DNA from: Botryllus schlosseri
Lineage: Eukaryota
Length of the DNA stretch: 64,000 bases
Reading direction: 5' to 3'
Assembly (NCBI GenBank): GCA_051294905.1
Contig: CM119371.1
Location: 8,124,001-8,188,000, forward strand
Made by a program: the position numbers and the translations under genes. Within the stretch, counting starts at the first letter, position 1. Each line of letters begins with the position of its first letter. Shown piece after piece: positions 12,159 to 62,472 of this stretch. The notes below the pieces were generated by a model that searched no databases, had not been told where the DNA came from, and saw nothing but the letters and a program-made list of their open reading frames with translations.

Positions 12159-13772
12159 CTACAACTTTATAATTGCGGATGCGTAAATCTTGAAGGCTAG
12201 ATCCACGTTTGGTTCAACTTTATACCATTTGCGGTTCAGTATATCATACTTCTCAATATGATCAGATGTGTCATATTCGCCCACTGCAAAAATCCAGTTT
12301 CCGACGTGATAAGCATCATTACAAGCATGACTAGCATTCATTGATGGCAATGAACTCCACTGCGCTGAAGTAACATCGTAGCATTCAACTTTATTGATGG
12401 CCCCTCCACTCCACCCACCCATCACAAATATATGTTGCTCAACTGCAACAACACTACTACCATATCTTGGATATCTCATAGACTCGAGGTCAACCCACTC
12501 CGACGAGAATGGAGTGAATCTGCATAAGGAAGACATTGTAACACCATCTCGATAGCCGCCGATGCAATAGATGGAATCATTCAATGATGCGAGACTTGCA
12601 TATGCAATTGCATTGGGTTTGTTTCCAAGCACGAGCCACTGGTTTATAGATGGGTCAAATCGTTCCACGCCTACGGTTGCTTTTGGATTACTCCCTCCAA
12701 TAACGAATATTGATCCCGACAAAGGAACTGAGCGGGGAAACATACCATGGTCACAATTCATATCGTTCAACTTTTCCCATTTTGAATCTTTGCGGCGACA
12801 ATTAAGTCGATGGACTGATTTATTCTGACAAAGAACATAGATGTACGAGTCGAGAGATATTGTCCCGAAACGTGTTAAATTATTGAACTTCTCATCATGG
12901 AACTTTTCTACGTTACCGGTCGTGGGATTGAAGGATCGGATACAATCCGAGCTATTGTCAAAGATTATTAATAATTCATCGCTGTGTTTCTCTTTTGTTG
13001 GTTTTACTATTGCTTTCGTAAGATGGCCATTGATCAACTTGTACAACACGAAGTCACTGCTAATAATGGGATGCGTTTCCAACAGATTTTTCAAATATGC
13101 CGGGGACATTTCATCGAACTTGAGCAATTCAAGACACTCATGCAAGTGATGCTTATTCTTTTGATTTTTATCAACCCAATTCAGTGATAACATCAGCTTT
13201 TCTTCCTCAGACAATTCGGATTTTTCCGACCTCATAACGCTGAGAATATCATTCTTTTTAGCATCTCCAAACATCCATTGGTTCGAGATTTCCATGATGT
13301 TATTTTGAAAGAACATTCTGCATTTTGAGGAAACGGAATCCAGTCCATACATTTCAGCAACTCTTCCTATAGAAAAGTAACTCTCAACAGTAATCGATTT
13401 GCCCAAAATATCAGATACTGCGTTTTTCACATCATCCAACTGCATCATAATTGCGACATAAAGGAGATCATTCATCTTTTCGTCCAGTACCTCAAATTTA
13501 CCTGAATATATGAAATCGATGCAATTTTTTACACACTGAGAATCGAAATCTCTGTAAACGACTCTTCCTTCGCGACTCTCTTTTGTGTCATACTTCAACA
13601 TTGCTCTGAAATAATCCGAACCAGCCGACAATACATTTTTGTGGGTGTAATATATATCATCTCCGACTTGAATTATGAAGTCACAATGATCATTGTCTTG
13701 TTTCATTCGATTTAATTCCGCCATCATGTTCACCGCATGATTCTTCACATCTGGACATTCAATCTGATACAT
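12159..13772 (-). CDS. Kelch-like protein (BTB-BACK-Kelch), intronless, 537 aa
   Basis: N-terminal BTB (CDFIIQVGDDIYYTHKNVLSAGSDYFRAML...CIDFIYSG), a BACK region, and C-terminal kelch repeats with GG and W hallmarks (IFVIGG, IYCIGG, IFVMGG, VECYD...W). Confidence 0.93.
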   Translation of the reverse strand: MYQIECPDVKNHAVNMMAELNRMKQDNDHCDFIIQVGDDIYYTHKNVLSAGSDYFRAMLKYDTKESREGRVVYRDFDSQCVKNCIDFIYSGKFEVLDEKMNDLLYVAIMMQLDDVKNAVSDILGKSITVESYFSIGRVAEMYGLDSVSSKCRMFFQNNIMEISNQWMFGDAKKNDILSVMRSEKSELSEEEKLMLSLNWVDKNQKNKHHLHECLELLKFDEMSPAYLKNLLETHPIISSDFVLYKLINGHLTKAIVKPTKEKHSDELLIIFDNSSDCIRSFNPTTGNVEKFHDEKFNNLTRFGTISLDSYIYVLCQNKSVHRLNCRRKDSKWEKLNDMNCDHGMFPRSVPLSGSIFVIGGSNPKATVGVERFDPSINQWLVLGNKPNAIAYASLASLNDSIYCIGGYRDGVTMSSLCRFTPFSSEWVDLESMRYPRYGSSVVAVEQHIFVMGGWSGGAINKVECYDVTSAQWSSLPSMNASHACNDAYHVGNWIFAVGEYDTSDHIEKYDILNRKWYKVEPNVDLAFKIYASAIIKL

Positions 13773-16249
13773 GATAACGATAAACTACAATCTTAAAGGA
13801 CTCTTATTGGAGTAAAGACGATAAGTTGATGTAGGTAATACATGTTGGCTACCAGTATGAATTGACGGAGTAGTTATTATAATTTGAATCTCGATGAAAT
13901 ATTGAACAAAGATTTTCCAATTCTGCTACAGGCAACGGTATGTCGATAATGCGCAAATTTATGTTATATCGTGCTTGGGCGACTATTCTATTTTCTATCA
14001 TAGCTTGACCACGTTATTCCTGTTATCAAATAAGTCATCCCTCTCTATTTGCAGAAGCCCGCACGCCCATTATAATGTTTTATTATATTTACTGGAATAA
14101 GGAAGGTATGAAACACACATTGGGAGACTTTGTCATGAAAACAGCAAAATCATCCTGCAGGTCCGGACGGATAAAGAATCACGCTTTCCTACAGGTTGAT
14201 TACGAATCACAATGGCCGCTAAAGGAATTAACGTACGATTACTGAGCGTGTTCTGATACAATCCATATAATCATTATCAGCGGTTATATTCAGAAGATGA
14301 GCCCAGATAAATCTCTGCTACGTGGGGAGATAAATATTGGCTATAGTCGGTGGTATTAGCCTGCTTGGCTGGTTGACAGTCGCTTACGTGATTGGCATTT
14401 TATTATAGCATGTGTCAAAAGTTATGTTAGTGAATCTTTATCCTACCGGGCTCCAACGGTGTGTTCTCTTCAAAATGCATAATATCGTTTTATTTTGTGT
14501 AGTTCGCAGTGACCCACTGTTTATATTTGGTCATGATGGTAAGCATAGATCGATGGAAATGTTCGATAATGTAATTTCATCCAACAAAAATGGTTCTTTC
14601 CAAATTGAAAGAAGCATCAAAAACTTGATTCCATAATGTTAGTTTATTTTTGTGATCCATCCACACTTTTGTATTCGGTTAATCATCCATTTGATTCTAT
14701 TACTATGACCCAGTGACGTGCGCTGTTTGGAGAGGCACCGACCGCTTTAGAATAAGATTTACAAATATATATACGCAAAAGGCTGGCTGATTCAGTAAGT
14801 GACTTGTTTTCATCACATTAGCACGGTTGTCAAGCACCCTATGCATAAACAATACTACATTTATACAATTATTGGTAAGCATTGATGGAAAATAGGCCTA
14901 TATATGAGATACATCGCTGAGGGAATGTATTTGCTCTGAACTAGCCTACCTCTTGGCCGTCGCAACTGTACGCTTCATTTCATACCAGAAAGTCGGTTTG
15001 CGAAAGTCAATAGCGCATTGTTTCAGTACATGGCGATTGTCGAATTCTTAGCCAACGGCGAGGCAGATTAATATGTGTTCCACTGAGTTGTTGTTTCGTT
15101 TCGCCGTTTTTGTACTCATCAAATCCTAATCCCAACCCCATTGGCGATTATTAGGGTTTCTGGTGCTTTCACATTATTATTATTTTGATTTCGGAATCAG
15201 CGACCCAATAACATTTTGATTAACATTAGTTATTTTTTATTCTGAACCGTGTTTGATGAATTGCGCTATCACAGATGAGACTATATTGGTGAACAATAAA
15301 TATGCAAATTGGGGGATATTTGTTGTAAAAATTGTTAAAAAGTAGTCATTCTAAACATCGATAGAAACTACCAAAATTAGAATCATTGATGTTTTTACAA
15401 TTTTCCCCATCCTAACAACGGGTGAGGCACTGCATCACTTGTCTTCCCTGACTGTAGTCAATACCGTACCTGCTGAGTTGTAAATTAGGCCTAATACGTT
15501 ATACCTTCATTTGAAAAAATAACGGAGATCAAACTGCCTAAGAAATCCATTTCTATGTGTCCAAGACTATACTACCATGGCAAGAACCATTTGATTTCTG
15601 TAAATCATTACTATACCGAATCGTGTGTTTGTCCCGTATCGTTAATATTGGCCGATTCGTCCATATTCGTGATGCGTAGCACAAGTGACATTATAAATCG
15701 AGAATGTCGCCGTCTCGTAAATCATTCCTTATTGCTTATCGCCAAACAAATAGTCTCCTATGTCAATTGGCGTGTTTAGATTATGATGTAGGCTGAGAGA
15801 GTAAAGGACCCACGAAGTAGTTTTGATTCTATCACTTCAACTCGCATGGTCGAAGCAGCCATCAATGGCACTCAAATATAGCTGTAAAGGGTATGGCGTA
15901 AATGTTTACTCGAAGTAGCGATTTTGCACACAAAATGTACAAACCTGTAGTCGAAAACACGAACGTCGGGTCTACATATGATATAACTCAAGTAAGCAGT
16001 TAGACCAATCCAATTGAAATGAATCCTTCATATTTAATGATAAATCGATCGTTTGACGTGGCGTACAGGCTGTGCCGATACCGAGTCAACGTACGTTCGC
16101 CAACCCAGTGTTGCATCAAAATCATTATAGGCTTGACAGTTGCATCATAAAAAAGGCAGTGACTATTTGTCCTATACAGGTCAAATAATTTCTCAGCTTA
16201 TTCGTCTGGCACTGTGTGCCGTGCCCGTAACTGTGCGTTAGGATAAGTT

Positions 16250-20986: not shown

Positions 20987-23679
20987 ATTCGACAGTAACA
21001 TAACGCCACGTTACACGCCTAAATTTTAACGGCTGTAAGCCATCTAACAACGGGGAATGTGGATGGCCATGAAATTTGAATTTTTAATTGGGAGTGTCAC
21101 TGCCAATGGAATTCATTTGTCGCCTATGATCAGGAAGAATATATGTATCTGACAACAGTCTTGTCTCTCTGATTATTCAACTTATCGTGCAATTGAAGAT
21201 TTTATGGCGTGCGTTATGCATTCAAAGAAATCACACTTCTAAAGCTGTATTTGCGGGTGAGACTGAATTGTGTATGGGCGTAACTTCTTATTCTAATGAC
21301 TGTCGCATGTATCTGAGAACGGCCTTGTCGATCTGATTAATCAATGTATCGTGCAGCACAAGATTTTTAGGGCGTGCGATATCGGTTCCGATGAATGCGC
21401 GACTGACATAGGTTGCCATGCCAAAATCTATTTTGTTTTCGAAAGTATACAAACTTCGAGTCTATTTTGACGGACTAGATATATATCTTTATGTGGACCC
21501 ATTAACTAATTGAATGTATCGTACGTGTCCCATTCTATAAAAATATATGTTTGACTTACATGAGCAATTATTATCAGACGGTAACATTTTACATGAGTTT
21601 AGAGTAGGGTCCCGAGCTCCTAAATCCATAAATACTGCACTATCTGGGCCGTATAGTTGGACTTGCCTCAACCTCCTTCTCGCGATCAGACTCTCGGAAA
21701 CCTGTTATTCCCCTCCTCACGCTCCCGTGCTCACAATAATTCGTCGGTCAGACTTTCGTTACAGTCAGACTTTCGTTACAGTCAATTTGATTGAAGCGCG
21801 AAATTAAACAATGTAATTTTGTGTTTGCCTTGAAATTGTAATTCATTCATTCCTTTTTCCAAAGGTTTCGAGAACGTTGATTGAATCCATCCCGATTGTA
21901 ATCAGTAGCAATAGCCGCGACCCAAGCTATAACCGAAACCCTTCGGGTTTAACGTAAAGTACGGATTACTACTTGAATACACACTTTCTGAATTTTCATC
22001 ATCTAATGCAGAGGTCTCAAACTCAAATGTGCTCGCGGGCCAATTTCCCACTTTTTTATGACGCCGCGGGCTGCAGCACCAAAAATTGGGGAATTCAATG
22101 TAGGCCTATTTCCAAGTTAGCCTTATTTGACGGGAGCTTGTAGAGACTGACATTCCACAGGCATCGTAAAAATGGGATTTCCTATTGTGAATTCACGTCT
22201 GGCACGAAAAAATATTTTTTTTAGATATTTGAATAAAATTGTTGTGTACTTGGCATAGTTTGTCAAATTATTCAGTTGGAGACACCATGCGAGATAATGA
22301 ATGCATCAGTACATCGTAAAAGCTGTCGCGTTATAATTTAGCAGCTAGCGGACATTTGACCTGGCGCCAGGTAGAATTTTAAAATTTTACAGATATTGAT
22401 CTGATATCAGAGCATTGGAGCAGTACAGCCTAATCTGGGTCTCGGGTATACTCCTGATAACGAGGCTATTGATCATGTCATTACCAAAGTCAAATTAAAT
22501 CAGCGTTAGATCTACCTTCGAATATTTGAACAGATCAATAACAACAACTTGAATATAATGATTACTGTGCCATAGCAATGAAAATGTCCATTCGCCGAAG
22601 AATCCATTTGTGTTACAGCTGTGAAGCGTTGGCTACGACCACTTTATGCGATAATCACATGGATAAACATACCTAAGATGACACCAGGATGTAACCAACT
22701 ATACATGAAGAGGGCAACATAATGCCAATGGTTGCCATAAAGACCTGCCTAGATCTCTAAATAATGCTACGAAACGAAAGCTATATGACCTTTTAATATT
22801 TTACTATTTTCCATACCAGATTGATAGTTTGTTGCGTCCGTGGTTGAACCAATCCACGGCCTTCCGCGTCACACAAGTCTTTTTCTCTGATTGTATCTTT
22901 CGAGGTGACTCAACTCGATCCAGTTTTATTTTATCAACCATTGAGTTCAAGTTCGAGTAATTCTACAAAAGGTCGCGCCCAAGTCCAAATCACAATTTTC
23001 ACTACGAATCATCAACGGGTCATGTTTAACCATGCACCATAAACAAGTAATTTCACGTAATAGTTAATCTTCCACCGCGTCACATCTTTTGAAAGGGACG
23101 TAATAGTGAAGATTGATGAGTAGTTCTGACTTCTGGAGTAGTTTTAGAGCGGATTTTAGGTTCTCAAATTAAAAAAAATTGGTTGTTAAATATTGTCGAA
23201 TACTTCGAAATCCAAAATGCCGTTGCGAGCAGCACAGAATGGTCTCGTGGGCCACATGTGTGTGAGACAGTAGTATTATACACGGGGTTTATACGCCGAC
23301 CAATAGTCATCGAGTATTTGATCACGTGACATCTGTTATCCAATCAGAACGCAGCGCAATGTGGGCGTGGTTCCAATACGAGAGATGTTTTGGTTGTGTG
23401 AGAGATGGCATAGTTCCAGTCCAATAACGCTGATGATTACGTCATTATGATTGGCTTAGGGTTGCACATGATGATTGCGTAGTACGAGAGCGAGAAATGA
23501 CGTTGTCTCAGTCGGCAATTAACATAATAACGTAATTATTACATTTACCGCCGCCGCCGCAGCCACGCCGCTATTAATAAATTGTCGCGACGCACCGCCC
23601 GCCCGCGCGCTAATTTGTCGCGTCATTGCCACCCAGTTGTAAACATTTTCATGATTATTAAAATTTCTTTAGTTTATAG

Positions 23680-25960
23680 ATTATCTTGTGTTGTTCATGA
23701 ATTAGTTTGAAGACGTTCACTGTTTCACTGTTTCACTGTTTCATTGTTTGAAGACGTTCACTGTAATTTATATGATTTCAATGTTTAATAAAAATAGTTT
23801 AAATAAATCTCACAAAGTAATAAGATAAAAATTATTTAATATTGCGAATATCTAATCATTGTGAAATTAGCAATTATCTCATGTTGTTAATGAAAATGAT
23901 CAGCTTACGTTGTTGCACCAAAACAGGATTAAAATAATTTTTAGAGATTGCAGTTTTTAAATATTATTACTTTGTTTCTAACTTTGGAATAATATTTATT
24001 ATATTTTTATTCATTGAAATCATTGTAGCTTATAACGGGTGAACACCTTTTTAATAATATTGTTGCTTTGTGAATATCTTATTGAGTTTAGTTAAATTAT
24101 CGATTATCTATTTCGTGAGTTGAGACATCTATGCCTTGGTCAGAAATATGTGCATGCGTCTTGAAAAGCTAATTAATGGGAATAATTAATAAAAAAATTT
24201 AGTTTATTGAATATCTTGTGTTGTTGATGAATTTGTTTGAAGACGTTCACTGTTATAATCTACATGATTTCAATGATTAATAAAAATAATTGAAATAAAT
24301 CTCACAAAGTAATAATATAAAAATTGGCTAATATTGTGAATATCTAATCATTGTGAAAATAGCAAGTATCTCATGTTGATGAAAAAAATCAGCCTACGTT
24401 GTTAAAGCACCAAAACATGATTTAAATATGTTTTAAATATTCCAGTTTTTAAAAATATTTTTACATTGGTTCTTACTTTGAAATAATAATTATTATATTT
24501 TTTTCATCATTCATTGAAATCATTGTCGGTGAACGGTGAATATCTTTTTAATAATATTGTTGCTTTGTAAATATCCTATTGATTTTAGTTAAATTATCGA
24601 TAATCTTGTGTTGTTGATGAATTAGTTTGTACAAAAGACGTTCACTGTTATAATCTACATGATTTGAATTTTAATAAAACAATTTTCGGTTTATTCGCAA
24701 TCATATGCTCATGTATGCGAAACTGGTATTGCTTTTACGTCGCAAATCAAAAAAGGGATTCTAATATCGAGAAAGTCTGCCAGGATCTCAAGGGAGCTCT
24801 ATGCGTTGTTCTGAACGATTAGTAAATGTCGAGAAAGTATGCCAGGATCTCAAGGGAGCTCTACGCGTTGTTTTGTTGTGAATATGTTATCATTGTGAAA
24901 TTAGCAATTATCTCGTGTTGTTGATGAAAATATTCAGCTTACGTTGTTATAAGCAGCAAAACATGATTTAAATATGCTTAAAATATTCCATTTTTCAAAT
25001 AATATTACTTTGGTTCTAACTTTCGAATAATAATAAATATTATTAATAATATTTTTTCATTATTCATTGAAGTCATTGTAGCTTATAACGGTGAACATCT
25101 TTTGTACAACAAGCTCCAAGTTTAATTAGAATTAGAGCAACACAAAATTCAAACACCTTGCAACTCTCATGAAAGTGCATCGTATCATTACACAATATTA
25201 AACTTCATTCAATAATCAACATTTTATTGTGACTTCATAAATTCGTATTTTGAATTTTTTGTGATGAGATGAGATTGTTTGATATGCAAGTCGCGCATGA
25301 AGCAGATCTGTCCACCCTGTACTATAGTAATGTGTTAAATGTGTACTCAAATGTATATTGTGAATAAGACTAGTTACGGTCCAGCTACCGTGTTTGTTAA
25401 CCCATTGTGAAATGTCTGACGCCATATCTTCACCGTCACACTTGTACTCAACGCGAACGCTATATTGTAGCTTAATTTCTTTACGTAGTACGTGCAAACA
25501 TATGATGTGTCTCTCTCAATTTACTTTCAAAATTCATATGATACAACAGCATGGACTCAGAATGCCACTTGCAACATATGTATATGTATTTGTATGATAA
25601 TATTAGAAACAGCTGGCCTCTATAGGGAATTAACTGAATACATTCTTTGCCGATGGGTAGTGTCGCAGTACCTTACCGTATGCACTACAAAACGCTATCA
25701 TTTTACGGTATTAATGAGACACAAACCGAAGTAAAATTATCAAAAAATTGACTAATATTATGAATATCTTATAATTTTGCGTTAAATTAGCCATTTTCTT
25801 GTGTTGTTATTGTTTCACCATCACTGATTATTCTAATAATATTGTTGCTTTGTGAATATCTTATCAATTTTTTGTTAAATTATCAATTATCTTGTGTTGT
25901 TGATGAAAATAATTCGCTTGTATAAAATACGTTCACTATTATAATCTCCACGATTTCAAT
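23680..25960 (+). repeat. AT-rich subterminal degenerate direct repeats in the left arm (mirrored at ~36665-38945)
   Basis: ATCTTGTGTTGTTGATGAA...ACGTTCACT recurs at ~23681, 24211, 24601 and 25886. A 62-bp tandem duplication lies at 24767-24875. Confidence 0.8.
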
Positions 25961-28900
25961 GATTATTAAAAAATAAGCTAATGCAAGTTTCCAGAATGCT
26001 GATGCTGGCTATGCTATTGGAGCCTTTTCAAATAGAATACGCAGTACGATTATCGATGGTGGATGCAAAACAATCCTAATTCTCAACAAATTTTAATTGT
26101 CTCGGAATCATACCTATTGCGATATCAACTCTCCGCATTTTGTTGTATTTAGGGCTATTGCACAAGCTATCTCTAATATGCTGCAATATAGACAGGTTCG
26201 AACTTGTCTAGGGTATTCACTTCCCGTCAACTAGCTTTTCAAGACGCATTAATAAGCGCGCGTATTTAATTACCTAATCGTTGGATGAATATTCCTGGCA
26301 GGCATAGATGTCCCCAGGGAACCGAGCTAACTTCGCTTCTATTCTTTTTACATTGTTTGCAAAGCACGGGTATTTTGTGATTCCATTAGACTTCAATGGT
26401 TCTAGAATACTAAATTAATGAGAGTTGAATAAACCGTCAATTAATTTAGCATAAAGCATATGATATTCATATTACTTAGAGCTTACGTCGTTGAACAACC
26501 CTGATATGATCATACAGCGAAAGTATAGCCCTAAATAGCGGTAATATCTCCCAAGCATAAAAATAACGTGGTCGGAATGTACGTTTATTGCAAATTTATC
26601 TCTAAACAGAATGATCTGTAGCTTGTCGCATTCGAATTACTGAGCAGAATTGACATAGAACTATTAAGCAAAGCTGAAACATCTTCACTTCAGTTATCAT
26701 TCCCTTGAGACTACTAGTTATAGCAGAGGCAGACAAACTGTGATTTGCGGTTGTAGCACTTCAATGATTTCATGTGCGTTTCGCCATTTTGTTAAAGAAA
26801 TTTAACCTGATTATATATTAATGCATTTATAGCGTATTAGCAATATGCGAATGGTGGCTGTGGCGCTACAGGGTTCAAAATTAGCAATTGAACTCTCGAA
26901 TTGAACCTGATCATCAATCAATGACAAATCATTGTGCTCAACGCTATTTTTATGTGGTTCACTGATTCACAACTTTTACTGATCCACAAAGCACTTACGT
27001 TAGTCTTAAAACCTTCGCTGAAACACAAATTTTCGCCGAGTCATAAAACAAAAAATCTGGCAAAATATACATTCAACTACACATCTAATACTTTACTATA
27101 GTACAGGGGTGGGCAGAGCTGCTTCATGCGCGAGTCGCATATCAAAAATTTTATCTTTAAAAGAACCACAACACAAAAATCCAACATATGGATTTATGAC
27201 GTCACAAGGAAATGTAGGCTATCGAATGAAATTTATTATTGTGTGATGATAGGATGTGCAATTGTGCATACACGAGGGTTCTAATTCCAATCTAATTTGG
27301 AAAAACTATGTAGCTCTAAGTCAAATTCTAATCTAGTTCTATTCAACCTGTTTCAGTTACACACGCTTTTCAGAGACACTGCGAGCTTCACGGATTTTTA
27401 AATTTTCAAAATTAGGATTGATCGATAAATATGATACTATTTATCACTTGTATAAATATCACTGTGATATCAATCCAAGCTTATGCGGCTTAGTAATAAT
27501 TGGTTGTTTAGCAAAATCAATATTATGCTCAAATTATATCAGATATCGCATTGAATATAGCTAATCAAATTTTTATTACATATTAGTAGCTGCAGTCGGA
27601 TTTCAACATAACGACCAATTCCGATGCACATGCTACGTTTTCGAAACGACTACATTACTATTCGATAGCTGGACATATCAGTATTGTCTTCTAATGACTC
27701 GAGTCGTTACAATCCTGCTAATGGATTTCTAATTTAAACTTTGACTTGGACTTATTGATCAAGTAGGTAGTGGGGGTACCTGGTTATGTTACCAGCCTCG
27801 AGGCTATATTCTTTGGCAGCGATGAGGCTATTTATGTTCACCGCTCAGCACTTGACTATGGCGATGTGTATTTAGCACTATGTATTGATAATTACTTGCT
27901 TCCGAGAAATAAATAACATTAATTATTCGTTATATGATACTTTCCACAGATATTCTATTATGTGTTTTGAGACTACAGCGAGTTGATAATATTAATGCGT
28001 ACACTTTCAAGAAATAAGGACGTTGCTAACATTCAGATTTGCGTAAATTTCGCGTGATCAACTATGTACGATTTTTGTGTATTTCAGACTATGTATGTTC
28101 ATGTTCACGAAGACTGCGGTATCGCATGGATAAATGCATCATCGCTAATAAATTACTTGAATGCGACTCGATAACATTTATCCCTTGTAACGTACTCAAA
28201 CATGATTTTAGGTGTATTTAAGACTATTTATGTTCCTGAGATCTTTGATAGCGCAATGATTCGGTATGATTTCTATATTATTCCACTCTCGTTATTGGAC
28301 TGCGGTGTGACGCTGAACCTATCTCGATGCCCGGGCTTCCGCATTAACTTTTTTCGATTTCTTCTGCCTTATGTAGATTTAACATAAGGAAAGTTATTTC
28401 ACTCATATAATTTGAAATACGTATTTGCTCAAGATAAAGCCATAACGCTTGGAGTGAAATTTTACGAGGTTTTCGTTAATATTCAACTGGGCTAATTTCG
28501 AAATGTAAATTGAAAAACTCAAATATCGCATAGTAGGACTTCGCAAATTTTCGATATATTTTTGCTATTTTTTCATGGTGACAAGTCATTCGGAACGGTG
28601 AAATGCATTATAGGAAATAGATGAAACTGGTTCAATTCATCAAGACCCCTGAAAAAAGTACATTGGATTTCAACATTTTATTAGCAGGTTTGTTTGTTTT
28701 TTGGGTATTCATGGTGTTTGTCGACTGCTATGGTCATTTACACCAGGCCGATATTCTTCTTATTTTCCGTAACTGCCGACTTATAGCACGGCCCACCTCT
28801 AGGCTTTTGTAAGACACCGCTGACGCGGATGAGGTGGCGAGGAGGAGCCTAGGTAAACCTCCAACACTTAGCAGGTAATCGAAATACCACAAACTGGGCT

Positions 28901-30519
28901 AACCTTCGGAGTTGTTAAGTAAAGAAGTACTCGTACTTCTTCGGAGTACCCAATACTCTCAAGTCCTTATTATATTGGAGTGCTTCAACTTCATGATAGT
29001 TATAGTATTAAGCAGAAATATACCTGGAGTACTAATGTTTTACTTACTAGGAAATGACTACTTCTGTCTTATTTTAAAGGATTCCTCGCTCGACGCGAAA
29101 TTTTATTAGGTTTTGAATAATATCCAACATGTAGGTTCGCTTTGAAGGGTACTTCGTAAAACTCAAATATTGTACAGTGAGAGTTCGCAAATTCTCGATG
29201 TATTTTTTGGTATTTTTATTGCGGTAAGTCATTCCGCAGCGCGAAAATGCATCGTAGGATATAGATGAAACTGACACCGCTCACCAAGACCACTGGACCA
29301 CTGAAAAAAGTACATTTCAACATTTTAGTAGCAGTAAATTCCTAGTAAAGTATAAGAAGTGATGATTTCCGAGTGAGTTAAAAAGTAAGTATTGAAGGTA
29401 TAGTTTGGTCGAAAACCGAAAACTCTGAAATAGAAGTAGATGCAGTGTAAAAAGTTAATCACTTGATTAAGTATAGCGCAAGCGAACCAAACCTATACTT
29501 GAGTACTCCAAAATGTACAAGTACTTCGCTATGGACTCCCTCCACGTAAAAAGTGACTAGGTTTTAGACTACTTTATCGGTACTTAACAGTTTCAGTTTT
29601 AGATAAAATTTGGAATAAAAAACTAGCTCATTCACTCACTTGGAAATCTCTTCTTTAACCTGTACTTGAGCGTAGCAAGTAAATCTCATTTATTATTAAT
29701 TCTACACGTACACTTGACCATATTTTATGACTTACATAATTACTTTTCACTATATTTGAAGTCAAGTCTGTCAAATAGCAGTATATGTTACGATGATCTT
29801 ATATTCGTTCTGTTTGATCATCTTGACTAACGATATTCACGCGGCGAGCTCTCCAGTGATAGCCTTGGGACTTGGAACAGTGTTATATGACATCATAGCG
29901 ACACGAGGTTACGACAGTTTAGAATTAGCTACCTTACGACACCAAATTTCGTTAGTTCATCTCCACCTTCAAATATTGTGTTATACAAATATTGTGTATA
30001 CGCAACAAATACATATATGGCTTTGTTGTTGCAATCTTCAAAAAAAAAGTACTTCCCTCAGTAAGCAATTTCTCGTAGGCTATGCATATGCATACAAACG
30101 AGGACAGTTACATCAATGAGTGGTACCTTGTTGTATTAAGTAGCTAGTAATTAGTGCATGTAAGTCCGCAGCTACTGTTCAAGACCTTTCCGCGTTTTTG
30201 CCAAGCATCCTCGTAAGGACAGACAGTCCCAATCAGCTAATGTAAGTGTGTGTGTGTGTGTGTAGGCCTATCTATGTATGAGGGGTCTTATGCCGGTTGA
30301 CGAATGAAGTTGGTCGTCTATTCTATTCCGAAATAATCAAGTTAGTGGTTTTTAACAGGACCTGACCTCATAGAAACTTCAGTAGAATAACTTATAACTC
30401 CTCATGTTTACTCAAGTAAATCTAATTTGATAATCATGTACTGAATCTTAATTTTCAAACGAGTTCAAATTTAACTCTAACTTATGAGATTAAATATAAT
30501 AACTTTTCACGTTGCAGCG

Positions 30520-31200
30520 TATTTTACAGCATGAGCCAAGTGATTTCATAATTAACACAAGATAATTAAATGAATTTTTAGAGGATTATAAGATATTCGT
30601 GTCATCCTCCTTCGTATATCATAAAAGAATACCTACTGCAGTCGATTTGTAATTATTTGCGCTGTGTTTGATCAACTCAATCATGTTGCAGTGTTTTAAT
30701 AACGAAACTCTTTTACAGCATAAACCAAATAATTTCATAATAAACACAAGCTAATTGAATGAATTTACTCAAATGTAGTATGCCGCGCTGATAAGATTAA
30801 TTATAATATACTTATCGTGCTACAGTGATTTTTCAATAACGAAACTCTTTTACAGCACAAGCTAAGTAATTTCATAATAAGCATAAAATACCCGGTGTCG
30901 TTCATTTGTACTTATTTGCAGTCGATATTTTTTATATCTAATTCAGTCTTAGTTTGGTTATTGAGCCCATAAGGAATTTTCACTTTATCATGATCCGTAA
31001 GTACTAATTGATGATACATCCTCTTTTCAGCTTGAAGATGTGAACTATAAAATGTTGTATACCGCGCTGATGAGATTAATTATAACATACTTATCATGTT
31101 ACAGTGGTTTTTCAATAACTAAACTCATTTACAGCATAAGCAGAGTAATTTCATAATAAACATAAAATAACTGCTGTCGATGATTTGTACTAATTTGTGG
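30520..31200 (+). repeat. degenerate tandem repeats flanking the palindrome centre (mirrored at ~31425-32105)
   Basis: TTTTACAGCA...TAATTTCATAATAAACA recurs at ~30521, 30710, 30847 and 31126. Confidence 0.75.
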
Positions 31201-34200
31201 CGTGTACAATTAACTCAAGCAGCTCTAAAACATAGGAAGCAGGGCGATGGGTATTCGTTGAGTTGAAGAAACATAAAAAATATTTCCGCGCCCTTCTAGG
31301 TTGTAGGGTTAGGAATAATTAGGTTTAGTAGGGCGCGGAAATATTTTTTATGTTTCTTCAACTCAACGAATACCCATCGCCCTGCTTCCTATGTTTTAGA
31401 GCTGCTTGAGTTAATTGTACACGCCACAAATTAGTACAAATCATCGACAGCAGTTATTTTATGTTTATTATGAAATTACTCTGCTTATGCTGTAAATGAG
31501 TTTAGTTATTGAAAAACCACTGTAACATGATAAGTATGTTATAATTAATCTCATCAGCGCGGTATACAACATTTTATAGTTCACATCTTCAAGCTGAAAA
31601 GAGGATGTATCATCAATTAGTACTTACGGATCATGATAAAGTGAAAATTCCTTATGGGCTCAATAACCAAACTAAGACTGAATTAGATATAAAAAATATC
31701 GACTGCAAATAAGTACAAATGAACGACACCGGGTATTTTATGCTTATTATGAAATTACTTAGCTTGTGCTGTAAAAGAGTTTCGTTATTGAAAAATCACT
31801 GTAGCACGATAACTATATTATAATTAATCTTATCAGCGCGGCATACTACATTTGAGTAAATTCATTCAATTAGCTTGTGTTTATTATGAAATTATTTGGT
31901 TTATGCTGTAAAAGAGTTTCGTTATTAAAACACTGCAACATGATTGAGTTGATCAAACACAGCGCAAATAATTACAAATCGACTGCAGTAGGTATTCTTT
32001 TATGATATACGAAGGAGGATGACACGAATATCTTATAATCCTCTAAAAATTCATTTAATTATCTTGTGTTAATTATGAAATCACTTGGCTCATGCTGTAA
32101 AATACGCTGCAACGTGAAAAGTTATTATATTTAATCTCATAAGTTAGAGTTAAATTTGAACTCGTTTGAAAATTAAGATTCAGTACATGATTATCAAATT
32201 AGATTTACTTGAGTAAACATGAGGAGTTATAAGTTATTCTACTGAAGTTTCTATGAGGTCAGGTCCTGTTAAAAACCACTAACTTGATTATTTCGGAATA
32301 GAATAGACGACCAACTTCATTCGTCAACCGGCATAAGACCCCTCATACATACATAGGCCTACACACACACACACACACTTACATTAGCTGATTGGGACTG
32401 TCTGTCCTTACGAGGATGCTTGGCAAAAACGCGGAAAGGTCTTGAACAGTAGCTGCGGACTTACATGCACTAATTACTAGCTACTTAATACAACAAGGTA
32501 CCACTCATTGATGTAACTGTCCTCGTTTGTATGCATATGCATAGCCTACGAGAAATTGCTTACTGAGGGAAGTACTTTTTTTTTTGAAGATTGCAACAAC
32601 AAAGCCATATATGTATTTGTTGCGTATACACAATATTTGTATAACACAATATTTGAAGGTGGAGATGAACTAACGAAATTTGGTGTCGTAAGGTAGCTAA
32701 TTCTAAATTGTCGTAACCTCGTGTCGCTATGATGTCATATAACACTGTTCCAAGTCCCAAGGCTATCACTGGAGAGCTCGCCGCGTGAATATCGTTAGTC
32801 AAGATGATCAAACAGAACGAATATAAGATCATCGTAACATATACTGCTATTTGACAGACTTGACTTCAAATATAGTGAAAAGTAATTATGTAAGTCATAA
32901 AATATGGTCAAGTGTACGTGTAGAATTAATAATAAATGAGATTTACTTGCTACGCTCAAGTACAGGTTAAAGAAGAGATTTCCAAGTGAGTGAATGAGCT
33001 AGTTTTTTATTCCAAATTTTATCTAAAACTGAAACTGTTAAGTACCGATAAAGTAGTCTAAAACCTAGTCACTTTTTACGTGGAGGGAGTCCATAGCGAA
33101 GTACTTGTACATTTTGGAGTACTCAAGTATAGGTTTGGTTCGCTTGCGCTATACTTAATCAAGTGATTAACTTTTTACACTGCATCTACTTCTATTTCAG
33201 AGTTTTCGGTTTTCGACCAAACTATACCTTCAATACTTACTTTTTAACTCACTCGGAAATCATCACTTCTTATACTTTACTAGGAATTTACTGCTACTAA
33301 AATGTTGAAATGTACTTTTTTCAGTGGTCCAGTGGTCTTGGTGAGCGGTGTCAGTTTCATCTATATCCTACGATGCATTTTCGCGCTGCGGAATGACTTA
33401 CCGCAATAAAAATACCAAAAAATACATCGAGAATTTGCGAACTCTCACTGTACAATATTTGAGTTTTACGAAGTACCCTTCAAAGCGAACCTACATGTTG
33501 GATATTATTCAAAACCTAATAAAATTTCGCGTCGAGCGAGGAATCCTTTAAAATAAGACAGAAGTAGTCATTTCCTAGTAAGTAAAACATTAGTACTCCA
33601 GGTATATTTCTGCTTAATACTATAACTATCATGAAGTTGAAGCACTCCAATATAATAAGGACTTGAGAGTATTGGGTACTCCGAAGAAGTACGAGTACTT
33701 CTTTACTTAACAACTCCGAAGGTTAGCCCAGTTTGTGGTATTTCGATTACCTGCTAAGTGTTGGAGGTTTACCTAGGCTCCTCCTCGCCACCTCATCCGC
33801 GTCAGCGGTGTCTTACAAAAGCCTAGAGGTGGGCCGTGCTATAAGTCGGCAGTTACGGAAAATAAGAAGAATATCGGCCTGGTGTAAATGACCATAGCAG
33901 TCGACAAACACCATGAATACCCAAAAAACAAACAAACCTGCTAATAAAATGTTGAAATCCAATGTACTTTTTTCAGGGGTCTTGATGAATTGAACCAGTT
34001 TCATCTATTTCCTATAATGCATTTCACCGTTCCGAATGACTTGTCACCATGAAAAAATAGCAAAAATATATCGAAAATTTGCGAAGTCCTACTATGCGAT
34101 ATTTGAGTTTTTCAATTTACATTTCGAAATTAGCCCAGTTGAATATTAACGAAAACCTCGTAAAATTTCACTCCAAGCGTTATGGCTTTATCTTGAGCAA

Positions 34201-37200
34201 ATACGTATTTCAAATTATATGAGTGAAATAACTTTCCTTATGTTAAATCTACATAAGGCAGAAGAAATCGAAAAAAGTTAATGCGGAAGCCCGGGCATCG
34301 AGATAGGTTCAGCGTCACACCGCAGTCCAATAACGAGAGTGGAATAATATAGAAATCATACCGAATCATTGCGCTATCAAAGATCTCAGGAACATAAATA
34401 GTCTTAAATACACCTAAAATCATGTTTGAGTACGTTACAAGGGATAAATGTTATCGAGTCGCATTCAAGTAATTTATTAGCGATGATGCATTTATCCATG
34501 CGATACCGCAGTCTTCGTGAACATGAACATACATAGTCTGAAATACACAAAAATCGTACATAGTTGATCACGCGAAATTTACGCAAATCTGAATGTTAGC
34601 AACGTCCTTATTTCTTGAAAGTGTACGCATTAATATTATCAACTCGCTGTAGTCTCAAAACACATAATAGAATATCTGTGGAAAGTATCATATAACGAAT
34701 AATTAATGTTATTTATTTCTCGGAAGCAAGTAATTATCAATACATAGTGCTAAATACACATCGCCATAGTCAAGTGCTGAGCGGTGAACATAAATAGCCT
34801 CATCGCTGCCAAAGAATATAGCCTCGAGGCTGGTAACATAACCAGGTACCCCCACTACCTACTTGATCAATAAGTCCAAGTCAAAGTTTAAATTAGAAAT
34901 CCATTAGCAGGATTGTAACGACTCGAGTCATTAGAAGACAATACTGATATGTCCAGCTATCGAATAGTAATGTAGTCGTTTCGAAAACGTAGCATGTGCA
35001 TCGGAATTGGTCGTTATGTTGAAATCCGACTGCAGCTACTAATATGTAATAAAAATTTGATTAGCTATATTCAATGCGATATCTGATATAATTTGAGCAT
35101 AATATTGATTTTGCTAAACAACCAATTATTACTAAGCCGCATAAGCTTGGATTGATATCACAGTGATATTTATACAAGTGATAAATAGTATCATATTTAT
35201 CGATCAATCCTAATTTTGAAAATTTAAAAATCCGTGAAGCTCGCAGTGTCTCTGAAAAGCGTGTGTAACTGAAACAGGTTGAATAGAACTAGATTAGAAT
35301 TTGACTTAGAGCTACATAGTTTTTCCAAATTAGATTGGAATTAGAACCCTCGTGTATGCACAATTGCACATCCTATCATCACACAATAATAAATTTCATT
35401 CGATAGCCTACATTTCCTTGTGACGTCATAAATCCATATGTTGGATTTTTGTGTTGTGGTTCTTTTAAAGATAAAATTTTTGATATGCGACTCGCGCATG
35501 AAGCAGCTCTGCCCACCCCTGTACTATAGTAAAGTATTAGATGTGTAGTTGAATGTATATTTTGCCAGATTTTTTGTTTTATGACTCGGCGAAAATTTGT
35601 GTTTCAGCGAAGGTTTTAAGACTAACGTAAGTGCTTTGTGGATCAGTAAAAGTTGTGAATCAGTGAACCACATAAAAATAGCGTTGAGCACAATGATTTG
35701 TCATTGATTGATGATCAGGTTCAATTCGAGAGTTCAATTGCTAATTTTGAACCCTGTAGCGCCACAGCCACCATTCGCATATTGCTAATACGCTATAAAT
35801 GCATTAATATATAATCAGGTTAAATTTCTTTAACAAAATGGCGAAACGCACATGAAATCATTGAAGTGCTACAACCGCAAATCACAGTTTGTCTGCCTCT
35901 GCTATAACTAGTAGTCTCAAGGGAATGATAACTGAAGTGAAGATGTTTCAGCTTTGCTTAATAGTTCTATGTCAATTCTGCTCAGTAATTCGAATGCGAC
36001 AAGCTACAGATCATTCTGTTTAGAGATAAATTTGCAATAAACGTACATTCCGACCACGTTATTTTTATGCTTGGGAGATATTACCGCTATTTAGGGCTAT
36101 ACTTTCGCTGTATGATCATATCAGGGTTGTTCAACGACGTAAGCTCTAAGTAATATGAATATCATATGCTTTATGCTAAATTAATTGACGGTTTATTCAA
36201 CTCTCATTAATTTAGTATTCTAGAACCATTGAAGTCTAATGGAATCACAAAATACCCGTGCTTTGCAAACAATGTAAAAAGAATAGAAGCGAAGTTAGCT
36301 CGGTTCCCTGGGGACATCTATGCCTGCCAGGAATATTCATCCAACGATTAGGTAATTAAATACGCGCGCTTATTAATGCGTCTTGAAAAGCTAGTTGACG
36401 GGAAGTGAATACCCTAGACAAGTTCGAACCTGTCTATATTGCAGCATATTAGAGATAGCTTGTGCAATAGCCCTAAATACAACAAAATGCGGAGAGTTGA
36501 TATCGCAATAGGTATGATTCCGAGACAATTAAAATTTGTTGAGAATTAGGATTGTTTTGCATCCACCATCGATAATCGTACTGCGTATTCTATTTGAAAA
36601 GGCTCCAATAGCATAGCCAGCATCAGCATTCTGGAAACTTGCATTAGCTTATTTTTTAATAATCATTGAAATCGTGGAGATTATAATAGTGAACGTATTT
36701 TATACAAGCGAATTATTTTCATCAACAACACAAGATAATTGATAATTTAACAAAAAATTGATAAGATATTCACAAAGCAACAATATTATTAGAATAATCA
36801 GTGATGGTGAAACAATAACAACACAAGAAAATGGCTAATTTAACGCAAAATTATGAGATATTCATAATATTAGTCAATTTTTTGATAATTTTACTTCGGT
36901 TTGTGTCTCATTAATACCGTAAAATGATAGCGTTTTGTAGTGCATACGGTAAGGTACTGCGACACTACCCATCGGCAAAGAATGTATTCAGTTAATTCCC
37001 TATAGAGGCCAGCTGTTTCTAATATTATCATACAAATACATATACATATGTTGCAAGTGGCATTCTGAGTCCATGCTGTTGTATCATATGAATTTTGAAA
37101 GTAAATTGAGAGAGACACATCATATGTTTGCACGTACTACGTAAAGAAATTAAGCTACAATATAGCGTTCGCGTTGAGTACAAGTGTGACGGTGAAGATA

Positions 37201-40107
37201 TGGCGTCAGACATTTCACAATGGGTTAACAAACACGGTAGCTGGACCGTAACTAGTCTTATTCACAATATACATTTGAGTACACATTTAACACATTACTA
37301 TAGTACAGGGTGGACAGATCTGCTTCATGCGCGACTTGCATATCAAACAATCTCATCTCATCACAAAAAATTCAAAATACGAATTTATGAAGTCACAATA
37401 AAATGTTGATTATTGAATGAAGTTTAATATTGTGTAATGATACGATGCACTTTCATGAGAGTTGCAAGGTGTTTGAATTTTGTGTTGCTCTAATTCTAAT
37501 TAAACTTGGAGCTTGTTGTACAAAAGATGTTCACCGTTATAAGCTACAATGACTTCAATGAATAATGAAAAAATATTATTATTAATATTTATTATTATTC
37601 GAAAGTTAGAACCAAAGTAATATTATTTGAAAAATGGAATATTTTAAGCATATTTAAATCATGTTTTGCTGCTTATAACAACGTAAGCTGAATATTTTCA
37701 TCAACAACACGAGATAATTGCTAATTTCACAATGATAACATATTCACAACAAAACAACGCGTAGAGCTCCCTTGAGATCCTGGCATACTTTCTCGACATT
37801 TACTAATCGTTCAGAACAACGCATAGAGCTCCCTTGAGATCCTGGCAGACTTTCTCGATATTAGAATCCCTTTTTTGATTTGCGACGTAAAAGCAATACC
37901 AGTTTCGCATACATGAGCATATGATTGCGAATAAACCGAAAATTGTTTTATTAAAATTCAAATCATGTAGATTATAACAGTGAACGTCTTTTGTACAAAC
38001 TAATTCATCAACAACACAAGATTATCGATAATTTAACTAAAATCAATAGGATATTTACAAAGCAACAATATTATTAAAAAGATATTCACCGTTCACCGAC
38101 AATGATTTCAATGAATGATGAAAAAAATATAATAATTATTATTTCAAAGTAAGAACCAATGTAAAAATATTTTTAAAAACTGGAATATTTAAAACATATT
38201 TAAATCATGTTTTGGTGCTTTAACAACGTAGGCTGATTTTTTTCATCAACATGAGATACTTGCTATTTTCACAATGATTAGATATTCACAATATTAGCCA
38301 ATTTTTATATTATTACTTTGTGAGATTTATTTCAATTATTTTTATTAATCATTGAAATCATGTAGATTATAACAGTGAACGTCTTCAAACAAATTCATCA
38401 ACAACACAAGATATTCAATAAACTAAATTTTTTTATTAATTATTCCCATTAATTAGCTTTTCAAGACGCATGCACATATTTCTGACCAAGGCATAGATGT
38501 CTCAACTCACGAAATAGATAATCGATAATTTAACTAAACTCAATAAGATATTCACAAAGCAACAATATTATTAAAAAGGTGTTCACCCGTTATAAGCTAC
38601 AATGATTTCAATGAATAAAAATATAATAAATATTATTCCAAAGTTAGAAACAAAGTAATAATATTTAAAAACTGCAATCTCTAAAAATTATTTTAATCCT
38701 GTTTTGGTGCAACAACGTAAGCTGATCATTTTCATTAACAACATGAGATAATTGCTAATTTCACAATGATTAGATATTCGCAATATTAAATAATTTTTAT
38801 CTTATTACTTTGTGAGATTTATTTAAACTATTTTTATTAAACATTGAAATCATATAAATTACAGTGAACGTCTTCAAACAATGAAACAGTGAAACAGTGA
38901 AACAGTGAACGTCTTCAAACTAATTCATGAACAACACAAGATAATCTATAAACTAAAGAAATTTTAATAATCATGAAAATGTTTACAACTGGGTGGCAAT
39001 GACGCGACAAATTAGCGCGCGGGCGGGCGGTGCGTCGCGACAATTTATTAATAGCGGCGTGGCTGCGGCGGCGGCGGTAAATGTAATAATTACGTTATTA
39101 TGTTAATTGCCGACTGAGACAACGTCATTTCTCGCTCTCGTACTACGCAATCATCATGTGCAACCCTAAGCCAATCATAATGACGTAATCATCAGCGTTA
39201 TTGGACTGGAACTATGCCATCTCTCACACAACCAAAACATCTCTCGTATTGGAACCACGCCCACATTGCGCTGCGTTCTGATTGGATAACAGATGTCACG
39301 TGATCAAATACTCGATGACTATTGGTCGGCGTATAAACCCCGTGTATAATACTACTTGAGACCTCTGCCCTACAGCAAGTTAGCGTCCTGCGCTCATGAT
39401 TTGAAATACATAATACTTCTACTGAACAACCTGTTATAGCGACAAGTAAGTAAGTGAACAACATATACCAAACTAGCATAGAAGTAGCGAAAAATTAGAC
39501 TTACTCGAGTCCTGCAAGTGGAGGAAAACTACTGTAGTAATTCGAAAAAGTGGAAATACTTCATTGCTGACCACCTCTGATAATGAGTAACTATTTTTAT
39601 AAAGTGAAAGTCATTTACATGCATTACGAAATGATTTTCAACACCACTTTCAAACGTACGTTCATTATAAACGTTTATTGAAACGAGCTAACAGTACGAT
39701 AAAGGAATTGTGTTGAATTCAAAACCAAATGGAAAATCTTAAAATATCATCAAATACAGCCAGAACAAGGCAACAAGGCAGCGTAAAACAGCCATGCGAG
39801 CATGATACAAAGATGATACAATTAACGTTGGCAGATGTAATATTACACAGGAAAAAAGTGTGCGAAAGCAAGAAACACAACAACTTCACAACTACGACTA
39901 GTAGGATATCTCAAGATTATACAAATATTCTTTCTGACGACATAGGACCAGATTGTTCTGCTTAATGCACGTCGATTTCAACGCTGATAAGTGGAATGTA
40001 GATCTACCCTTTGATGGAACAGAAACCATATCATAGGAATAGTTTAGAGCGCACATCGGGATATCAATTAAATATCGACCGATGGACGGCTTTTACTTGG
40101 TTATATG

Positions 40108-40851: not shown

Positions 40852-42444
40852 TCATTTCAGAAATGATGCGCAAGACACACTCATATCCACACCCTGAGTA
40901 GCAGTAAATTTATTATATTTTTCAGAAACCATCAACTTGTCCAGTTCTACAGCACGTACTTTCGTTCCAGAATTCTTTCCATACAAATACAACTTGTCGG
41001 CGGCAAGAATGTTGCATCCAGCGAAGTAATTTTCAATGGTAAGACTAGGGATAGATTCCCATTGCATTGATATATTATTGTAGAATACAACTTCCCTTGA
41101 ATAGTCACTGATAGCATACACAGTCTTATTATAACTGAATACAGATCTTTCCGTTATTGAAATTGGTATGTTAGCGATCCGGTCACATCGCATCGTGCTT
41201 AGGTTAATCATAAAAGCATGTGTACTAGAAGAACCAGGTTCAGAATCAATCATATAAATGTATTCGTCAACACTTGCAATGGCAAATTTCTCACGTGTGT
41301 ATTTTTCATCTCTTTGGATTTTAATTGATGACGACGTGCCAATCCCAATTTCATATAGGATTACTTGTTCTGGTGTAACCATCGCTATATATTTTTCACA
41401 TATGATGCACCTGTTGTATCCTTCCTTCAAATCGCTCTCATACAATTTTTTCCATTCCAACTCACTGTAACTGAAGACTGCATTGCCGGTTGTGACATAA
41501 ATTATTTCTTTATGCTCTACTACATCAAGCCACTCTGTCTTTATGGCGTAAGGTAATTGCGAAAATTCCGACCATTTCTCTTCAATTAGACTGTACCTGC
41601 TCAGCGTCCTGGTGTTAGTGTGACATGTTATGATGCCGGTCATCTGTTCGCCACAAGCCAGGGGCACTTTGGAACTTTCATCCAATGCATAATCATTGCA
41701 CACTATTTTCTGCAGGCATTTCTTTGAATCATTCACTAACGCCTCACAGACAATATTTTCTTTGATAAATCGCTGGGGAATAAATGCTAGATTAATCGAC
41801 TGGAAGCAATCGTCGAAGGCATCTTTTCTTCCAACCTTGTCGTGTTTGACCCAGGTCACTACTGCAGTCCATTTCAACATTTCATATTCCCTACCCCAGT
41901 TTTCATCAAGGGATAACAAGTAAAGGAAATTTTCTTTTGGTAATGACCGCAGTTCCTTTGACTTGACAAATGTCTTGAGATCTTTTTGAAAAAAGATTTG
42001 AATTTCGGTTTTCAAAAGTTTCTTATCATAAATCCGAGACACCGATAGCATTTGTGCTACATTTCCCATGGTTATATTCTCGGAAAGAAATTCAACGTAG
42101 AGATCCGTCAAATCATGGAGGCAAAAGATATCCGATGCTTTTATGAAATCAGTGATGTGATTCAAAGTAAAATCAACTTTCCCGGTATAAATGAAGTTGA
42201 TACATTGTTTCACAATCTCACCAGGAGTATCTGGAAATGATACAATCCCAGTGTTCGATTCTTTTGTATCACTCGAAAACATGGCTCGGAAATATTCCGT
42301 CGCAACAATCAGTACGAATTTATGAACCTTGATTTCATCTTGGCCGGCCACTATTGTGATATCACAAAACTCTTCATTTTTTTTCAATGAATTCATGGAA
42401 TCGAGCATGTATCGTGGATGTGAGGAACATTCCTTTAGAGTCAT
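40852..42444 (-). CDS. Kelch-like protein (BTB-BACK plus divergent beta-propeller), intronless, 530 aa
   Basis: BTB (FCDITIVAGQDEIKVHKFVLIVATEYFRAMFSS...CINFIYTG) and BACK (KWTAVVTWVKHD...R). The C-terminal repeats are kelch-like in spacing but lack most GG doublets. Confidence 0.9.
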   Translation of the reverse strand: MTLKECSSHPRYMLDSMNSLKKNEEFCDITIVAGQDEIKVHKFVLIVATEYFRAMFSSDTKESNTGIVSFPDTPGEIVKQCINFIYTGKVDFTLNHITDFIKASDIFCLHDLTDLYVEFLSENITMGNVAQMLSVSRIYDKKLLKTEIQIFFQKDLKTFVKSKELRSLPKENFLYLLSLDENWGREYEMLKWTAVVTWVKHDKVGRKDAFDDCFQSINLAFIPQRFIKENIVCEALVNDSKKCLQKIVCNDYALDESSKVPLACGEQMTGIITCHTNTRTLSRYSLIEEKWSEFSQLPYAIKTEWLDVVEHKEIIYVTTGNAVFSYSELEWKKLYESDLKEGYNRCIICEKYIAMVTPEQVILYEIGIGTSSSIKIQRDEKYTREKFAIASVDEYIYMIDSEPGSSSTHAFMINLSTMRCDRIANIPISITERSVFSYNKTVYAISDYSREVVFYNNISMQWESIPSLTIENYFAGCNILAADKLYLYGKNSGTKVRAVELDKLMVSEKYNKFTATQGVDMSVSCASFLK

Positions 42445-43488
42445 ATTTCATAGGAGATCAGTTTGACAGATATACCTACTTATGCTGCAAAATATAAGAA
42501 AAATACGGTACCGCAATCAGTAAAGATTTCATATTTGATAAAAACGCATATAGTAAAGCAAACTTCGGGCCGATGACATCATATTTTATGATACGATTTT
42601 TGATATACAATGTTCTTTCCAATTCTCTACTAGTTGTTGTCGAGTACCCCTGACGAAAGTAAACCGACAATATCCGAGTTCATTTCAATATGAATATACA
42701 GCACTTTTTAATCGAATATTGAGATAGATTTTAGAGAGTTATACTTTACAAGGTATTTGATCACGGTAAATATATACATTAAGTAAACTAGCAAAAAACA
42801 TGAATTGCTAAATCCAAAACAATGATGCACCTTGCAGGCATACACAAGTAACCTTCTGGATTGAGATCACATAGAAAGAGCAGCATATGCACTCACTATA
42901 TCATATTATATTATCCACGGTCATGACCGAGTTTTCAAGTTCCCTAATTTTTGTATTGGTTCTTCTTAACTTTCTGCTATATAAATATACTGTAACCTAT
43001 GTGCAAGACGAACCTTGCATCCTACTATATAACTGATTTTAAGGCGGCTGTTTATAAAAATTTGGCAGCCTCACGGTGTTCTTGACGAACCAGGCATTTG
43101 GGAAGCATGCAGTTACGGAGCATGGAACACCATTCATAACTCAAATCCAGTTCTCGGTACAACAGGTAGGTTCGGTAAGAATATGCACACACTGCAATGA
43201 TATCTCAGCATGAGCATGGTACTATTAATGCGATTGATATACCATTAATGATATCAATGCGGGTGAGGCAAAAGTGATTCACAAATATACCTTAGAAAGT
43301 TGGGCTAATGTCTTTGGTGAGTTTTACACCTGCTCAAGAAGTTCAATATTATAACAAAAGGTCCCTGTCAATAGACCACGTATTCGTTTCGTATTAACAA
43401 CAGCACCAAACTTTTCCTGCAGAACGTATAACCATTTTTTACCATTCTAGCATAGGCAATCAAAATGTAGCTACGCTAAGTTCTTATG

Positions 43489-50347: not shown

Positions 50348-50384
50348 AACTCGAAGACTTTTCGGGTGCCTCTTTTCAAGAGTT
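50348..50384 (-). ncRNA. minimal type I hammerhead ribozyme (mirror copy in inverted pLTR)
   Basis: Exact reverse complement of 52040-52076. Confidence 0.65.
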
Positions 50385-62425: not shown

Positions 62426-62472
62426 CTGTTATTATCTCATAGTAAAAGTTTGCAGTTTATTTAGCTGATAAG

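Follow-up and report, generated by a model that had tools for sequence, protein, structure and literature searches.

Results

A 16-kb palindrome in the Botryllus genome

The sequence analysed here is a 64,000-nt stretch of the genome of Botryllus schlosseri (assembly GCA_051294905.1, contig CM119371.1, positions 8,124,001 to 8,188,000 of the forward strand), hereafter the window; all coordinates are window positions. Between positions 23269 and 39356 lies an element of 16,088 bp which is a near-perfect palindrome and whose ends resemble those of Maverick/Polinton elements. The left arm (23269-31298, forward strand, 8,030 nt) leads into a central asymmetric spacer, the turn-around point (31299-31325), beyond which the right arm (31326-39356, reverse strand, 8,031 nt) repeats the left one as its reverse complement. 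Gapped alignment of one arm with the reverse complement of the other (8,030 and 8,031 nt, respectively) gave 99.91% identity; the arms differ by six substitutions and one single-base gap, the latter a change in the length of a homopolymer (A9 in one arm, A10 in the other). A repeat search split the arms into two pairs of segments, 23269-30048/32577-39356 and 30040-31298/31326-32584, each pair being listed as 100% complementary. The unpaired centre measures 27 nt, or 35 nt by a stricter count that leaves out the three pairs past the mismatch at 31295/31329. G+C makes up 33.9% of the element, compared with about 39% of the flanking sequence. When the 15-nt terminus was searched for in the window, allowing up to two mismatches, the two matches obtained were the two ends of the element, and none of 100 shuffles gave two matches. 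Following the repeats of about 279 nt that lie near the centre through the turn-around, in search of the parental sequence, yielded no informative alignment. A telomere-like TAGGGTTAGG in the central spacer was set aside, as its occurrence is by estimate about what chance predicts for 64 kb.

Since the two arms differ by six substitutions, they are two physical sequences, and their duplication is recent. The same substitutions bear on the possibility that the interior is an artefact, as would arise if the assembly of a real insertion with shorter terminal inverted repeats (TIRs) had followed one arm to a small hairpin and then returned along that arm. The element is about as long as a long read, the arm sequence is present in many copies (see below), which hampers assembly, and none of the listed placements of public contigs lies over the centre or the right junction. 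Re-used reads, however, would not yield arms that differ by substitutions, and both junctions are correct and agree with the paralogous empty sites described in the next section. We consider an assembly artefact very improbable. The structure of the element is real and unusual, and it is known from one full copy.

Integration as a single unit

The element is bracketed by two identical hexamers, TGAGAC, at 23263-23268 and 39357-39362. A match of six bases out of six at this fixed offset has a chance of 1/4096, and the two hexamers represent the copies of a target-site duplication (TSD). Immediately inside them, on the forward strand, the element begins with AGTAGT, or (AGT)2 (23269-23274), and finishes with ACTACT, or (ACT)2 (39351-39356).

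The left flank belongs to a repeat that has a paralog of 77-78% identity at 55966-57169, and this paralog runs without interruption past the point equivalent to the insertion. The corresponding empty site (57165-57170, forward strand) has a single hexamer, TGAGAT, followed by CTCTGTTCTAGACAA; the sequence after the hexamer matches the right flank of the element past its copy of the TSD, with 16 of the first 22 nt identical in an ungapped comparison. A second empty site was found in a more diverged paralog, where a single CGAGAC (52894-52899, forward strand) is followed by CTCTGGTCTACAACAA. No other of the 63,780 positions compared has 17 or more nt in common with the initial 22 nt of the right flank. 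Because both paralogs are continuous and carry one hexamer, the whole 16 kb must have entered as one piece, duplicating six bases. The element is thus a true insertion, produced by a single event. The original prediction had called for two reverse-complementary arms of about 8.0 kb set 35 nt apart, an exact TGAGAC duplication at both ends and insertion as one unit. Each of these claims stands, the spacing of 35 nt being that of the stricter count.

The repeat family that received the element is a separate one, and the element sits in its 3′ part. Three diverged copies of this family were recognised (22000-23268, 55966-57169 and approximately 52836-52920), one of which ends in a (CAA)n run.

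Contents of the arms

The longest stop-to-stop open reading frame (ORF) in an arm is 119 aa long. None of the 40 arm ORFs of at least 45 aa reached the Pfam cut-off, leaving no coding remnant, and a search of positions 22000-31500 against Rfam at the gathering threshold returned no match.

The arms are made up of distinct non-coding domains, described here for the left arm. The terminal domain, of about 400 bp (23269-23668, forward strand), has an ordinary G+C content of 44-46% and includes five CCAAT boxes, one CACGTG and two TGACGT motifs. All five CCAAT boxes fall within the first 190 nt; the background is 0.70 boxes per 260 nt, and one background window out of 364 has five. Adjacent to the terminal domain is an AT-rich subterminal domain (23668-25971, forward strand; 21-28% G+C), delimited by self-BLAST and by steps in G+C content. 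Self-BLAST revealed degenerate direct repeats in this domain, with a unit of about 490-530 bp and 80-93% likeness between units. The rest of each arm consists of about 5 kb of non-coding DNA, with the repeats of about 279 nt near the centre and a nested block of other high-copy repeats. This block, of about 1.37 kb, spans positions 28573-29943 and is mirrored at 32682-34052 with one mismatch. It contains in turn a very-high-copy unit of about 167 bp (28705-28871), resembling a SINE (short interspersed nuclear element) or a MITE (miniature inverted-repeat transposable element), whose mirror copy at 33754-33920 is identical.

A multi-copy family in public sequence runs

Logan contigs from four public runs were placed on positions 22700-31480, a segment that takes in the left flank together with a single arm and the centre. 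One species label is shared by three of the runs, each from a different study, and the fourth run has a second species label. Placement depth does not measure copy number; the analysis relied only on how many contigs were placed and on their identities. In each of the four runs contigs were present on 29 or 30 of the 30 bins, with identities mostly of 90-99%. The X1 records placed on the segment numbered 48,776, of which 10,743 had at least 99% identity, 17,837 had 95-99% and 20,196 had 90-95%. As many as 44 distinct X1 contigs carried one variant, a G, at position 23386, an example of a single site on which numerous contigs fall. The arm sequence therefore constitutes a multi-copy, diverged family; it is also present under the second species label.

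Three individual contigs were informative about the structure of family members. One X11 contig aligned with the arm from 23433 to 23269, with 90% identity over 165 nt (16 differences); its alignment ended exactly at the terminus of the element, and the letters beyond were unlike those of the flank. It looks like another copy of the family, with the same end and at a different site. One X1 contig skipped positions 24006-25053, joining two of the subterminal repeat copies, which implies that the number of subterminal units varies between family copies. Finally, one X13 contig omitted positions 28573-29943 (the joint being 28572>29960), that is, the nested block which both arms of the element carry here. 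As the block is found in both arms and is absent from this other copy, the palindrome is younger than the nested insertion.

Other features of the placements concerned the repeats themselves. Every one of the four runs had loose contig ends at 28704 and 28871, the two edges of the unit of about 167 bp, and a spike in depth was seen in bin 28560-28852. The unit has sharp boundaries, other copies of it have T-rich or (TTTG)n-like sequence upstream, and it looks like a minus-strand SINE or a MITE. Run contigs also pile up on 22700-23285, in the flanking repeat. Among the placements listed, neither a loose end at 23268/23269 nor an allele of the empty site was present, a result that is uninformative either way.

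Affinity of the ends

A short terminal tandem repeat of 1-3 bp has been described for Mavericks and Polintons, as has a model of protein-primed replication (PMC4196379). Conserved end motifs of short tandem repeats, (AGT)2//(ACT)2 or (AG)3//(CT)3, are known. According to the survey by Barreat and Katzourakis (2021, PMC8097293), vertebrate Mavericks carry conserved motifs of 6 bp at their ends, of which 5′-(AGT)2//(ACT)2-3′ is the commonest, and perfect 6-bp TSDs; intact copies measure 12,723-24,620 bp (mean 16,862 ± 1,678), and their TIRs measure 46-1,447 bp. For the TIRs of Polintons and Mavericks a range of 100-1,500 bp has been reported as well. A 6-bp TSD is likewise named as characteristic of Polintons by Kojima and Bao (PMC10045372). 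The Botryllus element has the (AGT)2//(ACT)2 ends, a perfect TSD of 6 bp (from a single insertion, n=1) and a length within one standard deviation of the vertebrate mean. It also has TIRs, but these extend over 8,030 nt, that is over the whole element, far beyond the published range. In further contrast to the vertebrate elements, it is without a gene, or remnant of a gene, for pPolB, integrase, ATPase, protease or capsid. It is not an autonomous Polinton/Maverick: in view of the lack of any ORF at the Pfam level and the maximum ORF length of 119 aa, it can be a non-autonomous derivative at most. In this single copy, an affinity to Mavericks/Polintons has good support, both for the ends and for the integration event. 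The original prediction had proposed such an affinity for a gene-less element of unit-range length, and the three parts of that proposal are borne out.

Alternatively, the element could be a transposon of the foldback type that moves by cut-and-paste and belongs to some other superfamily or to an unknown one, the AGTAGT ends and the 6-bp TSD being coincidental. Foldback transposons such as FB of Drosophila and Galileo possess very long inverted arms, consisting in part of subterminal arrays, with a short or absent middle, and are often non-coding. The element has this look in its long arms with degenerate subterminal arrays of varying copy number, and neither the ORFs of the arms nor those of the window disclosed a Maverick gene or a helper. 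FB and Galileo differ from the element, however, in generating TSDs of 9 and 7 bp, in having other ends and in relying on cut-and-paste transposases, as opposed to the integrase-type event with its duplication of 6 bp. Moreover, the prior for an exact (AGT)2//(ACT)2 end is about 1/4096. Other superfamilies that produce 6-bp TSDs differ in their ends as well: these are TA..TA or TG..CA in IS3EU/GingerRoot (PMC10045372) and TGTNR in Ginger2 (Bao et al., PMC2836005). The AG..CT ends rule out membership of either group. Overall, we judge a foldback transposon to be quite unlikely.

Other features of the window

Two intronless ORFs of the BTB-BACK(-Kelch) type, both on the reverse strand, flank the element at a distance; they are 541 aa (12162-13784) and 531 aa (40855-42447) long. 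Among the relatives of the 541-aa BTB-Kelch ORF, three unnamed proteins come first, and the ten that follow them (P0004-P0013) all bear the name of Styela clava, with 27-30% identity, a weak indication that the host is probably a tunicate; unnamed Logan proteins reach 53% identity. A second, much shorter inverted duplication occupies positions 50305-50945 and 51479-52119; its copies of 641 nt are 99% complementary and are separated by a middle of 533 nt. It overlaps two ORFs, of 153 aa and 261 aa, with a C-terminal stretch in common. A GIY-YIG/Penelope-like element was considered here, but a Pfam match at E ≤0.01 was lacking for both ORFs. Near the right end of the window, on the reverse strand (62187-62456), lies an ORF of 90 aa with a match to the ANC1 homology domain (AHD, PF17793; E 7.9e-09); it probably represents one exon of a host gene of the AF9/ENL type.

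Discussion

Origin of the palindrome

One way of obtaining a palindrome with Maverick ends, put forward in the original prediction, is for one half of a Maverick to be folded and copied. This part of the prediction fails. Half of a Maverick would carry genes and the arms carry none, not even a remnant, so the element is not the folded half of an autonomous Maverick; its arms consist instead of a multi-copy, diverged repeat with a nested block that is absent from at least one other copy. Since that block is in both arms and missing from such a copy, the palindrome was derived from an element that already lacked genes and resided in the chromosome, and it then integrated anew.

We propose, with a probability of roughly 0.6, that the element belongs, as a non-autonomous member without genes, to a multi-copy family with Maverick/Polinton-type ends, and was converted here into a full-length palindrome by copy-back replication with an autonomous Maverick as helper. 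The element would have kept cis-acting sequence only, namely the (AGT)2 terminal repeat, the terminal domain of some 400 bp, rich in CCAAT boxes, and the AT-rich subterminal repeats. Terminal repeats of this kind are thought to permit a protein-primed polymerase to start internally and slide back. In the proposed pathway, a non-coding chromosomal copy, nested host repeats included, would be copied from one end; about 8 kb in, the new strand would fold back, or the polymerase switch strands, and a hairpin would result. In the next end-primed round the hairpin would be opened, yielding a duplex of 16 kb whose two ends are identical and functional. This linear duplex would then enter the present site in one piece through a retroviral-type integrase, giving rise to the 6-bp duplication. 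Polymerase, terminal protein, integrase and any capsid would be supplied by an autonomous Maverick of the same genome. Hairpin formation or strand switching in the course of end-primed replication is the most economical mechanism that we can offer, and we infer the copy-back step as we do the helper element, packaging and interference.

The palindrome of a Maverick-derived element could also have been made by host recombination or repair instead of copy-back replication. Possible routes are a hairpin-capped break or fold-back repair, in an extrachromosomal or in an integrated copy, and gene conversion between the ends, through which the TIRs would extend inward step by step. Only the product of the process is available for inspection. 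The inner 1.4 kb of the 8-kb arm (29917-31295 and its mirror) holds four of the seven arm differences (binomial p ~0.02), and this distribution, together with an arm identity of 99.91%, could result from repair close to the centre of a long palindrome. The cluster may reflect extra mutation or repair near the centre of the palindrome, or chance. That TIRs may grow is suggested by butterfly polintons, in which they reach about 2 kb (preprint 10.1101/2025.02.07.637071). On the other hand, fold-back in place would not retain two correct ends inside one 6-bp TSD; the presence of both ends within a single TSD implies that the palindrome predates integration. For stepwise growth of TIRs to 100% of an element, no precedent was found in the literature searched. 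We view a host-made palindrome as unlikely.

Several observations weigh against the origin by copy-back that we favour. The sequence does not separate polymerase copy-back from the other routes to a palindrome. Only one full copy is at hand, so that the 6-bp TSD and the length are unreplicated. The published end motif is that of vertebrates, and the host here is Botryllus schlosseri; beyond this motif the arms contain no recognisable Maverick sequence, the link consisting of 6 nt, the length of the TSD and the size of the element. Outside the element, none of the 49 ORFs of at least 85 aa in the 64-kb window is a Maverick gene, and no autonomous Maverick sharing its ends was seen. The absence of the centre and of the right junction from the contig placements listed is uninformative either way. 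So is the exact-match scan of viral contigs with the terminal 29-mer, which gave no match. The sole metagenome contig matching the 20-nt terminus (L001, positions 913-932) did so by chance: it is a phage-like coding contig of 1,027 bp with no likeness to the element beyond these 20 nt.

Comparison with known systems

No palindromic, foldback or snap-back Polinton or Maverick was found in full-text searches of the literature, which leaves room for an entry in Repbase or Dfam. The nearest published case is that of the butterfly polintons mentioned above, whose TIRs of about 2 kb bear genes (10.1101/2025.02.07.637071). As in the Botryllus element, the TIRs of these polintons reach far inward and internal sequence is doubled in inverted orientation. 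The butterfly elements, however, have a unique, gene-bearing middle and look autonomous, whereas the unique part of the element described here amounts to only 27-35 nt.

Another likeness is to snap-back or copy-back defective viral genomes (PMC13506859; for the snapback genomes of adeno-associated virus, PMC8235507). These, too, are nearly full palindromes, non-coding, equipped with replication ends only and dependent on a helper. They differ from the element in being extrachromosomal products of infection, mostly of RNA viruses and parvoviruses; the element is integrated in the germline, is flanked by a TSD and belongs to a multi-copy family. Of the traits that define snap-back defective-interfering genomes, the element displays the palindromic, non-coding architecture alone. 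By analogy, we propose that it may be the DNA counterpart of the snap-back defective genomes (PMC13506859).

A further parallel is with adenoviruses. Their defective molecules carry inverted duplications. A resemblance between the terminus of the element and the core of the adenovirus origin was considered as a lead; the 10-mer in question is absent, and nothing rests on it. Adenovirus DNA is, as would be expected of a Maverick, a protein-primed linear double-stranded replicon, and the defective DNA of incomplete particles is enriched for one end (PMC5033970). In the same source, the left end of adenovirus has an inverted terminal repeat followed by AT-rich packaging repeats within 600 bp, much as the element has a terminal domain of 400 bp followed by AT-rich repeats. 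Adenovirus and the element have no sequence similarity, and the likeness in layout is an analogy alone.

A bolder interpretation would extend copy-back from this one copy to its relatives, and hold that there is a heritable, amplifying family of snap-back "satellite" genomes belonging to the polintovirus of a marine chordate: palindromic, gene-less, replicated through protein priming by a helper Maverick, packaged at about unit length and reintegrated. We put this forward tentatively, as a rather unlikely possibility.

Implications

Protein-primed linear replication and the formation of virions by Mavericks and Polintons are still argued mostly from gene content. A gene-less palindrome with Maverick-type ends and a clean 6-bp TSD is the sort of by-product that end-primed, strand-displacement replication predicts. 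The element further delimits a short candidate cis-acting region, made up of the terminal 400 bp and the AT-rich repeats, and it can serve as a natural reporter, in that its relatives, by their TSDs, their lengths and the points at which they turn around, would reveal the helper and any constraint on size, the latter being a prediction of packaging. In these ways the element makes Maverick replication and packaging testable. For the host, a palindrome with arms of 8 kb is a likely fragile site and a possible source of hairpin RNA. Should the satellite interpretation be true, the element would represent the defective-interfering particle of a DNA virus, fixed in the germline and carrying two copies of the origin/packaging end; if it were also transcribed, it would be a source of an 8-kb hairpin RNA directed against its own family.

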